DNA of 8,372 nucleotides, from IMG/VR virus record IMGVR_UViG_2519899564_000011, positions 1 through 8,372 of that record; one strand, 5' to 3'. Positions 6,512 to 6,868 of the stretch are shown piece after piece. Every line of letters starts with the position of its first letter. Position 1 is the stretch's first letter. The notes beneath the pieces were generated by a model. The model saw only the letters and a program-made list of their open reading frames with translations, was not told where the DNA came from and did no database searches. Both the position numbers and the translations under genes were made by a program. Source of the stretch: a virus (lineage: Duplodnaviria > Heunggongvirae > Uroviricota > Caudoviricetes).

Positions 6512-6720
6512 ATAAATTACTCTCTTACTGTAGGGGTAAGAGGATTTTACTATTTTTCTCGCTGTAGGGGTACACGAGAACCACCGAGCCTGATGTGGTT
6601 AAAAGACAGGCATACGAATAAACACTGCACTGTGTATTCATTCCAACGAGTGAATACACGGAGCAATGTCGCTCGTAACTAAACAGGAGCCGACTTGTTC
6701 TGATTATTGGAAATCTTCTT

Positions 6721-6748
6721 TGCCCTCCAGTGTGAGGGCAATTTTTTT
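6721..6748 (+). terminator. plus-strand intrinsic terminator (tL-like) ahead of the next early-left gene
   Basis: Stem GCCCTC (6722-6727) / GAGGGC (6734-6739), loop CAGTGT, followed by ATTTTTTT (6741-6748). Confidence 0.55.
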
Positions 6749-6868
6749 GACGGAGGATATATGAGTGAAGTAACAGATTTAGTTGTTATTGAAAAAGCAA
6801 ATGCAATGACTGTAATTTAGTCTGCCGACCAGATTGAAGAAATTCTTCAAAAGGTTGAACGTGAAGTT

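Follow-up and report, generated by a model that had tools for sequence, protein, structure and literature searches.

Two non-coding RNA modules, a sieB promoter/sas-type module and the small RNA gene PreS, probably adjoin in the early-left operon of a lambdoid prophage

The interval studied here comprises the 250 bp between an open reading frame (ORF) of 164 amino acids, which runs against the leftward promoter PL, and the next plus-strand gene in an 8,372-nucleotide stretch of caudoviral DNA (IMG/VR record IMGVR_UViG_2519899564_000011, positions 1 to 8,372; hereafter, the window). With a probability of roughly 70%, this interval is the junction of two independent non-coding modules of a lambdoid early-left (PL) operon: a sieB-type promoter with a sas-type antisense RNA, followed by the gene of the small RNA (sRNA) PreS. 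The window as a whole is the early region of a lambdoid prophage. The gene cI (3840–4577), OL/PL (approximately 5070–5150), nutL, and an N-family antiterminator gene (5348–5620; N-peptide family PF25694 in Pfam) all lie on the plus strand, which is hence the PL direction. A first-pass annotation of this DNA had read the interval as one control region, with direct and inverted repeats as binding sites for a regulator of the minus-strand gene and/or as a structured RNA element. For the most part, the analysis does not support binding sites for a regulator. The structured RNA element proved right twice—once for the sas-type antisense RNA and once for the PreS leader hairpin with its sRNA. The single control region resolves into two modules.

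The modular layout emerges from similarity searches. Positions 6400–6745 are 98.8% identical to phage HK620, in the record of which hkaP carries the label “putative superinfection exclusion protein” and three terminators are given, tL1, tL2A, and tL2B. Positions 6616–6900 are 98.9% identical to phage Sf6, the record of which (AF547987) features a 113-bp “bsq4 boundary sequence,” a tL2A with “homology to phage lambda,” and gene 33. Phage lambda gives two separate matches: 6616–6747 corresponds to lambda 33925–34056 in the spacer between ral and ea10 (131 of 132 positions identical), and 6518–6612 corresponds to lambda 34396–34491 just upstream of sieB, with 85% identity overall and 100% over 6555–6612. 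The sieB gene of lambda immediately follows N and likewise opposes PL. Approximately 300 bp with orf28 and ral separate the two blocks in lambda, whereas in the window they abut. Mosaic joints are located at both copies of the direct repeat and at 6612/6616. The PreS block belongs to the PL operon, lies on the same strand downstream of N, and has the same layout in HK620 and lambda. A scan of the whole window against Rfam 15 with E up to 1 gave no match, and hence, neither PreS nor sas is represented in Rfam 15.

By its match to lambda, window 6661–6748 is the same RNA gene as PreS. In lambda, this RNA—formerly LPR1—occurs as species of approximately 88 and 68 nt with their 3′ end at tL2a, and it is bound by Hfq (bioRxiv 10.1101/2024.10.31.621285). 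According to the same study, PreS is restricted to lytic growth, being absent in lysogens and present within 10 min of PL derepression; it activates the translation of dnaN, represses alaS, supports lambda DNA replication, and is conserved in approximately 2,500 genomes. The lambda primers for cloning, T7 transcription, and full deletion (P810, P969, and P1103) place the +1 of LPR1 at GAGCAATGTCGC, which is window position 6661; counted up to the last base of the U-tract (6748), the RNA has exactly 88 nt. The lambda seed deletion comprises TGTTCTGATTATTGGAA, at approximately 6697–6714 on the window, and the entire seed interval with its M1 (CTG) and M2 (GGA) positions is identical. Window and lambda thus share the +1, the seed, the terminator, the strand, and the operon; the exception is a single base where the terminator stem has its foot, GGGCAA in the window and GGGCGA in lambda. 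The terminator that the first-pass annotation had seen closing the region is real—an 8-bp stem with five G–C pairs followed by T7, as judged by a terminator scan. It does more than close the region, being tL2a and, hence, the 3′ end of PreS. In the window, PreS would be made only with PL switched on, end at tL2a, bind Hfq, and act on dnaN and alaS as it does in lambda. The neighbors differ: PreS is flanked by ral and ea10 in lambda and by the sas-type block and a gene resembling Sf6 gene 33 in the window.

The inverted repeat of the interval forms the leader hairpin of PreS. The perfect 9-bp repeat GTGTATTCA/TGAATACAC at 6632–6640 and 6651–6659 is present as it had been described (0.01 expected by chance) and constitutes the perfect core of 22-nt arms, 6622–6643 and 6648–6669, which are 82% complementary. 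Its 10-bp spacer is correct as a distance, but it is mostly paired, and the real loop has 4 nt. The surrounding 135-nt stretch (6616–6750) folds with a z-score of -5.3 compared with shuffled sequences. The +1 of PreS pairs with 6630 as the 14th pair counted from the loop, such that the mature 5′ end lies in the 3′ arm inside the lower stem. In a survey anchored on the PreS seed, which yielded 155 copies from IMG/VR and reference phages, the conserved block always starts with GAATAA (6616). A frequent 5-nt indel deletes the outermost five pairs and leaves the 17-bp core, and single substitutions are mostly wobble-compatible or pair-creating. In addition, a rare haplotype (L134, L147, L170, and L180) exchanges GTGTATTC/GAATACAC for TATAGCAG/CTGCTATG in the same register and keeps the sequence from the PreS +1 onward unchanged. 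Over the 21 distinct sequences of the hairpin, 89.8% of the cells are paired (20–50% in slid controls), and eight pairs are changed on both sides. The pairing is kept and the sequence of the arms is not, which fits an RNA structure and not an operator, contrary to the initial proposal of a regulator-binding site.

Since palindromes are typical operators and this one lies directly upstream of the reported +1, it might instead serve as an operator or promoter element driving PreS as a primary transcript. We consider this highly improbable. A promoter scan of the plus strand from 5900 to 6900 gave no sigma-70-like promoter near the inverted repeat, and by our own reading the hexamers at a proper distance are poor. 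The alternative haplotype alters both arms and keeps the pairing, and PreS is absent in lambda lysogens and seen within 10 min of PL derepression. On account of the missing plus-strand promoter and of the haplotype, which keeps the pairing only, we rejected the idea that this repeat contains a promoter for PreS.

Most likely, the leader hairpin directs the endonucleolytic excision of the PreS 5′ end from the PL transcript. We infer this role because there is no promoter-like site on the plus strand nearby, because PreS appears only upon PL derepression, and because the pairing is conserved. The hairpin has the features of a ribonuclease (RNase) III substrate—an imperfect stem of approximately two helical turns with the product end inside—and a cut by RNase III within the stem would be the first choice. 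Alternatively, RNase E may cut at the stem base, which would leave a protective 3′ hairpin on the upstream RNA. A literature search for RNase III in the ral–ea10 spacer yielded no primary data, and the portion of the lambda preprint that was available (bioRxiv 10.1101/2024.10.31.621285) does not discuss the leader hairpin and its covariation.

The upstream module is built around the direct repeat. The 11-mer CTGTAGGGGTA occurs exactly twice on the plus strand, in direct orientation as had been claimed, and this is not a chance arrangement: with at most one mismatch, 0.03 matches are expected, and at least two were reached in 0 of 200 shuffles. Allowing for two mismatches, the repeat can be extended to a 16-mer (6523–6538 and 6557–6572) with a spacing of 34 bp. 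The GenBank records of phage P22 annotate the promoter PsieB (29690–29720), the start of the sieB RNA (29727), and the overlapping frames of sieB and esc. In an alignment of window, lambda, and P22, the P22 start—7 nt after the -10 hexamer—corresponds to window 6537. By homology, copy 1 therefore spans positions -1 to +10 and copy 2 positions -35 to -25 of the minus-strand mRNA, and the first-pass placement of the copies, roughly at -35 and just after +1 on both sides of TAAAAT, holds when compared with the annotated P22 promoter. In P22 and lambda, the mapped +1 marks the exact end of the repeat unit. Throughout the three-way alignment, neither CTGTAGGGGT copy varies, and the 24 bp between them differ. 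A generic promoter scan did not call the minus-strand promoter because of its poor -35; its -10 and start are predicted from the P22 alignment. On this homology, a weak sigma-70 promoter (TAAAAT with a poor -35) would drive the minus-strand gene, which encodes a HkaP-family protein, from approximately 6537, and it would be expected to do so in the lysogen like PsieB of P22 does for sieB.

On the plus strand, the same DNA corresponds to the sas RNA of P22, which is reported to be made by the superinfecting phage. Secondary sources on this RNA, originally the subject of Ranade and Poteete (1993), describe sas as a 105-nt cis-antisense RNA that shifts the translation of sieB from SieB to the shorter Esc, by which P22 evades its own exclusion (PMC12197685, PMC13397905, PMC7067206). 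A small-RNA study of P22 from 2026 provides the RNA-seq sequence of P22A-sas, which has 127 nt on the PL strand, has its 5′ end 2 nt ahead of the sieB start codon's complement, and spans both repeats and the conserved block to ...AAAAGACAGGCA (PMC13397905). The homologous region of the window is 84 to 85% identical to P22 and lambda over approximately 95 nt. It begins at the CAT of the 164-amino-acid ORF (6509–6511), passes through the Shine–Dalgarno (SD) sequence and the predicted +1, and continues through two further hairpins, 2 and 3. The gene that follows the promoter (the cargo gene) is, hence, covered in antisense at its leader, SD, and start codon. PL transcription from an induced or superinfecting phage would yield this RNA. 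Being complementary to the mRNA from +1 via the SD to the AUG, it would prevent initiation of translation at the first start codon, following the P22 mechanism, and probably lets the growing phage silence an otherwise harmful prophage gene.

Minimum free energy (MFE) folds of the window and of P22 sas share one layout. Hairpin 1 (6521–6543) holds copy 1 in its loop and 3′ arm, and in hairpin 2, copy 2 extends from the upper part of the 5′ arm across the GGGG loop to the UA with which the 3′ arm begins. Two repeat families (A and B, described below) both retain hairpin 2 despite different stems: 92.6% of the cells are paired (28–52% in slid controls), with four pairs changed on both sides. Selection on this hairpin has to be selection on the plus-strand RNA because the minus-strand mRNA starts downstream of it. 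Support for the structure of hairpin 3, a conserved element of all families, is weak; variation is found mostly in the loop, the MFE fold favors an alternative GCCUG/CAGGC pairing, and the variation decides for neither. A seeming covariation of hairpin 1 between lambda and P22 was rejected, as the stems are in different registers. Hairpin 1 with its T-rich tail was also flagged by a scan as a plus-strand terminator, which it probably is not because the P22 sas RNA runs through this site and lambda lacks the hairpin.

The direct repeat recurs in related phages. A survey anchored on its 3′ block (GTGGTTAAAAGACAGGC) gave 120 loci with 47 distinct upstream sequences, which fall into four families. 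Family A features CTGTAGGGGT twice, family B TGTTGGGGA twice, and family C TTTGACTGTGGAAA twice. In these three families, a repeat of 9 to 14 nt with a spacing of 33 to 35 bp lies at a constant distance from the anchor, and its sequence differs per family. Family D lacks a second copy, and the longest repeat in the same spacing range has 4 to 7 nt. A second scan enlarged family B to 40 distinct sequences, all with a core common to both copies. Sub-lineages alter both copies jointly, as in L107 with CTATTGGGGA twice and in L333 with TGTCTrTTGGGGAA twice. Family B carries a -10-like hexamer ([G/T][A/T]TAAT) at a constant place 7 nt before the complement of copy 1, and every family has a poor -35. 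In family A, identical repeats stand before unrelated cargos, namely lambda-type SieB, P22-type SieB, HkaP, and a distant HkaP homologue. They are also present in phages with different repressors and N proteins, the immunities of lambda, P22, and HK620 being different. The first-pass annotation had named repeats absent or without constraint in related phages as an outcome that would speak against it; the repeats turned out to be constrained.

These distributions bear on the binding of proteins to the repeats. Autoregulation by the 164-amino-acid protein, one of the suggestions made at the outset, is unlikely because lambda and P22 have the same repeats in front of their unrelated SieB proteins. 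Binding of CI or Cro is unlikely as well, since lambda, P22, and HK620 differ in immunity and share the repeats. The phage's own operators, OR (3780–3850) and OL (5070–5150), are built of TTATAAC/GTTAT half-sites and are dissimilar; neither repeat had a match in OR or OL, even at two to three mismatches. A more general version would have the direct repeats as DNA sites for a phage transcription factor acting on the minus-strand promoter—either an activator replacing the poor -35 or a repressor. The geometry is that of promoter control, with copy 2 at -35 to -25, copy 1 at -1 to +10, and a poor -35 in every family. A concerted change of both copies is also what co-evolution with a binding protein would produce, and HkaP-family proteins have a C-terminal CxxC...CxxC region, with diverged HkaP homologues in families A and B. 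However, the identity of the family A repeats across differing cargos, repressors, and N proteins leaves no linked candidate protein, the operators of the phage are unlike the repeats, and the compensatory conservation of the plus-strand hairpin 2 would be left unexplained. We therefore regard a DNA site as unlikely.

A host regulator is a far weaker candidate. On the minus strand, each copy in the window reads TACCCCT. This sequence agrees with the NarL/NarP heptamer consensus that we take to be TACYYMT, and NarL can use heptamers in various arrangements; the cargo gene would then be under nitrate or anaerobic control of the host. Copy 1, however, is AACCCCT in lambda and CACCCCT in P22 and has thereby lost the first T, and the window has no 7-2-7 inverted pair. 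Families B and C share the architecture with sequences off the heptamer. The fit is probably a coincidence because the related repeat families do not show it, and the proposal is extremely improbable.

The repeats and conserved blocks might also be mere boundary sequences—crossover points for module exchange with no regulatory role. This would agree with the bsq4 annotation of the PreS block in Sf6, with the mosaic joints at both repeat copies and at 6612/6616, and with a variant lacking hkaP, in which a similar G-rich motif at the end of hkaQ is joined to the sequence after copy 1. Yet, the function of the PreS block has been demonstrated in lambda and that of the sas region in P22 according to secondary sources, and crossovers are expected inside any conserved functional segment. 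Moreover, compensatory changes in two hairpins and concerted changes of the repeats indicate selection on the sequence itself. An exchange role without regulation is accordingly improbable.

For the direct repeat, we tentatively favor a two-site RNA pairing model, which we hold at less than even odds. Both CTGTAGGGGTA copies lie inside the sas-homologous transcript, each in a hairpin and each complementary to the first 10 nt of the mRNA. The mRNA starting from ACCCCUACAG lacks the 5′ arm of hairpin 1, and its 5′ end should thus be unstructured. The two copies could serve as two landing sites for this free end. Pairing with copy 1, in the cis overlap, may extend over the SD (AAGAGAG, 6526–6520) and the AUG; copy 2, presented by hairpin 2, is equally complementary. 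Within a family, predicted duplexes of the mRNA 5′ end amount to -18 to -23 kcal/mol with hairpin 2 and to -18 to -26 kcal/mol with the hairpin 2 region; between families, the values are -4 to -16 kcal/mol. The proposed step resembles the IS10 system, where the 5′ end of RNA-IN meets the loop of RNA-OUT: in both cases, a free mRNA 5′ end would be complementary to the loop and upper stem of an antisense hairpin. There is no sequence relationship to IS10, and the window differs in having two such sites per antisense RNA, the second of them outside the cis overlap.

Several points weigh against the account given so far. For the window and for HK620-type phages, both RNAs are predictions from sequence, and the sas-type RNA has been given its ends by extrapolation from P22. 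As the cargo gene is a different one from sieB, a switch of the SieB-to-Esc type would be hypothetical in the window. Copy 2 at -35 together with copy 1 at +1 is a geometry that would equally fit a DNA-binding regulator, and the pairing model offers no explanation for a spacing that equals the distance from -35 to +1. With regard to PreS, a few single substitutions in the leader hairpin break a pair. Its covariation comes entirely from essentially one alternative lineage and, hence, counts as a single evolutionary event. The available portion of the preprint is, in addition, silent on the origin of the PreS 5′ end (bioRxiv 10.1101/2024.10.31.621285).

Table 1. Features of the two modules and of the cargo gene, in window coordinates
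Feature	Position	Strand	Remarks
Cargo gene, 164-amino-acid HkaP-family protein (phrog_1244)	6017–6511	-	Position of sieB in lambda and P22
sas-homologous region	6507–6612	+	P22A-sas aligns here; ends extrapolated from P22 (5′ end 2 nt before CAU, 105 nt)
Direct repeat copy 1	6528–6538	+	Complement makes up nt 1–10 of the minus-strand mRNA; within loop and 3′ arm of hairpin 1 (6521–6543)
Predicted start of the hkaP-family mRNA (A of ACCCCUACAG)	6537	-	Alignment to the annotated P22 sieB RNA start
-10 hexamer TAAAAT, sieB-type promoter	6549–6544	-	Column-for-column alignment with the P22 PsieB -10 TAAACT
Hairpin 2, UCUCG(C)UGUA-GGGG-UACACGAGA	6557–6579	+	MFE folds of window and P22 sas; alignment of families A and B
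Direct repeat copy 2	6562–6572	+	Overlaps the -35 region of the minus-strand promoter; part of hairpin 2
Hairpin 3, AACCAC-N10-GUGGUU, then AAAAGACAGGCA	6579–6600	+	3′ end of the sas-homologous block; conserved in all families; structure weakly supported
Conserved non-coding block	6616–6748	+	131/132 to lambda 33925–34056; Sf6 copy annotated as bsq4 and tL2A
PreS leader hairpin	6622–6669	+	Core 6627–6643/6648–6664, loop CAAC 6644–6647; stem of 17–22 bp
PreS (LPR1), 88 nt	6661–6748	+	Placed by lambda primers; a processed form of approximately 68 nt would start near 6681
PreS seed	6697–6714	+	dnaN-pairing CTG 6700–6702; alaS-pairing GGA approximately 6708–6710; seed-deletion primers P970/P971, mutagenesis primers P838/P888
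Terminator tL2a	6720–6748	+	Stem 6720–6741, U-tract; 3′ end and Hfq-binding tail of PreS

The cargo gene of the window is 98.8% identical to HK620 hkaP at the DNA level, and its protein matches phrog_1244 in PHROG (E = 8e-51). It has no Pfam hit, and a PADLOC match to Cas10 (E = 0.0035) is weak and was taken as chance. HkaP is homologous to the cargos of family B with 26 to 31% identity and unrelated to SieB; the target of the sas-type RNA in the window is, hence, a gene of the HkaP family and not a sieB that gives SieB and an in-frame Esc. An internal Met62 (ATG 6328–6326 on the minus strand) is preceded by a perfect SD, AAGGAG, at a spacing of 6 nt, and an aligned Met with an SD-like sequence is found in one of three homologues examined, which belongs to family B. 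A shorter, Esc-like C-terminal product starting at Met62 is possible but unsupported. The only paper found to mention hkaP used its flanks as neutral insertion sites. In a biosensor study, gfp-kan cassettes in the hkaO/hkaP intergenic region of HK620 left induction and titers normal (PMC4506075). This region, which is homologous to the interval, is thus apparently not essential for lytic growth in the laboratory.

The surroundings of the two modules provide further observations. Two G-rich motifs that resemble each other flank the hkaP cassette, AAGGGGGTGAAGAGG where the hkaQ-like gene ends (5975–6000) and GTAGGGGTAAGAGG at copy 1 (6528–6543). In some IMG/VR phages without hkaP (L015, L042, L071, and L095), the end of hkaQ (...AATAAGGGGGTGAGAGG) is joined directly to ATTTTACTATTTTT. 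This looks like gain or loss of the cassette by short-homology recombination. The terminator tL1, annotated in HK620, falls on window 6398–6421 on the PL strand inside the 5′ part of hkaP (TTGGTGTAGATCACCAATAGCTTT), where a generic terminator scan made no call; a genuine terminator at this site would let none but N-modified PL transcripts through to the sas-type region. The phages of family D (L008, L014, L026, and similar) have the 3′ sas block, and a small minus-strand gene (e.g., MSKLTTMKVACPDCG...) starts approximately 45 nt away. They feature one hairpin (TGCTGG-N14-CCAGCA), and the conserved block contains a possible extended -10 (TGGTATGCT). The hairpin loop is complementary to the predicted mRNA 5′ end, which by our own reading fits the pairing theme. 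The 3′ sas block is also present in Rac-like phages. A link to the RalA antitoxin sRNA of rac was dropped, as RalA is antisense to ydaC downstream of ralR and, hence, located at a different place.

Downstream of PreS, the plus-strand gene is homologous to gene 33 of Sf6 and named “TolA” or “coiled-coil” in Escherichia coli records. In the gene region 6763–6820, it contains an in-frame amber TAG at 6818–6820, where Sf6 has CAG, and the long ORF resumes at an ATG at 6869; owing to the amber codon, it is likely a pseudogene or an amber allele. On the far side of the interval, a 98-amino-acid ORF with a hydrophobic N terminus (4618–4914; MEFLIVFVVVLVIILFVLL...) follows closely upon cI, with which it shares the strand, and precedes a strong terminator-like hairpin at approximately 4920–4950. 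Its position is like that of genes expressed in the lysogen such as rexB, and it has no Pfam or PADLOC hit.

Published work on PreS/tL2a of lambda and on PsieB/sas of P22 already accounts for most of the region. With the P22 system, the window shares a homologous sequence (84% to P22), the position after N, the orientation against PL, the aligned positions of the -10 and of the predicted start, both repeat copies, and hairpin 2. It differs from P22 in its target, which is of the HkaP family instead of SieB/Esc, and in the different sequence type of two stretches, the leader from copy 1 to the AUG and the spacer that separates the copies. The 113-bp bsq4 of Sf6 is the homologue of window positions 6627–6739 (approximately), which hold the PreS leader hairpin and most of PreS, and what is annotated there as a recombination joint is an sRNA gene according to the lambda data. 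New are the assignment of a sas-type module to a cargo other than sieB, the concerted evolution of the repeats, and the structural conservation of the PreS leader hairpin.

Two regulatory RNAs are probably encoded in a stretch for which genome records give no annotation, or just terminators and a “boundary sequence.” PreS lets the phage raise the sliding clamp of the host and thereby helps lambda DNA replication, as put forward in the lambda study, and its conserved 5′ hairpin offers a route for excising the sRNA from the PL transcript. The sieB promoter/sas module is a portable cassette head for unrelated cargo genes. More speculatively, and less probable than the pairing model itself, the repeat may be the two-site recognition device of widespread sas-type RNAs that gate cargo genes—SieB, the HkaP family, and others—with the variants CTGTAGGGGT, TGTTGGGGA, and TTTGACTGTGGAAA as RNA specificity groups. 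If so, the first approximately 10 nt of the cargo mRNA would be a conserved handle, seized at either hairpin-presented copy by the PL transcript of an induced or incoming phage, and specificity groups would, like immunity groups, decide which phages switch off which resident exclusion genes. Should the repeats set RNA specificity, they would add a new layer of phage–phage recognition; if not, the region is no more than a well-explained part of lambdoid early-left operons.

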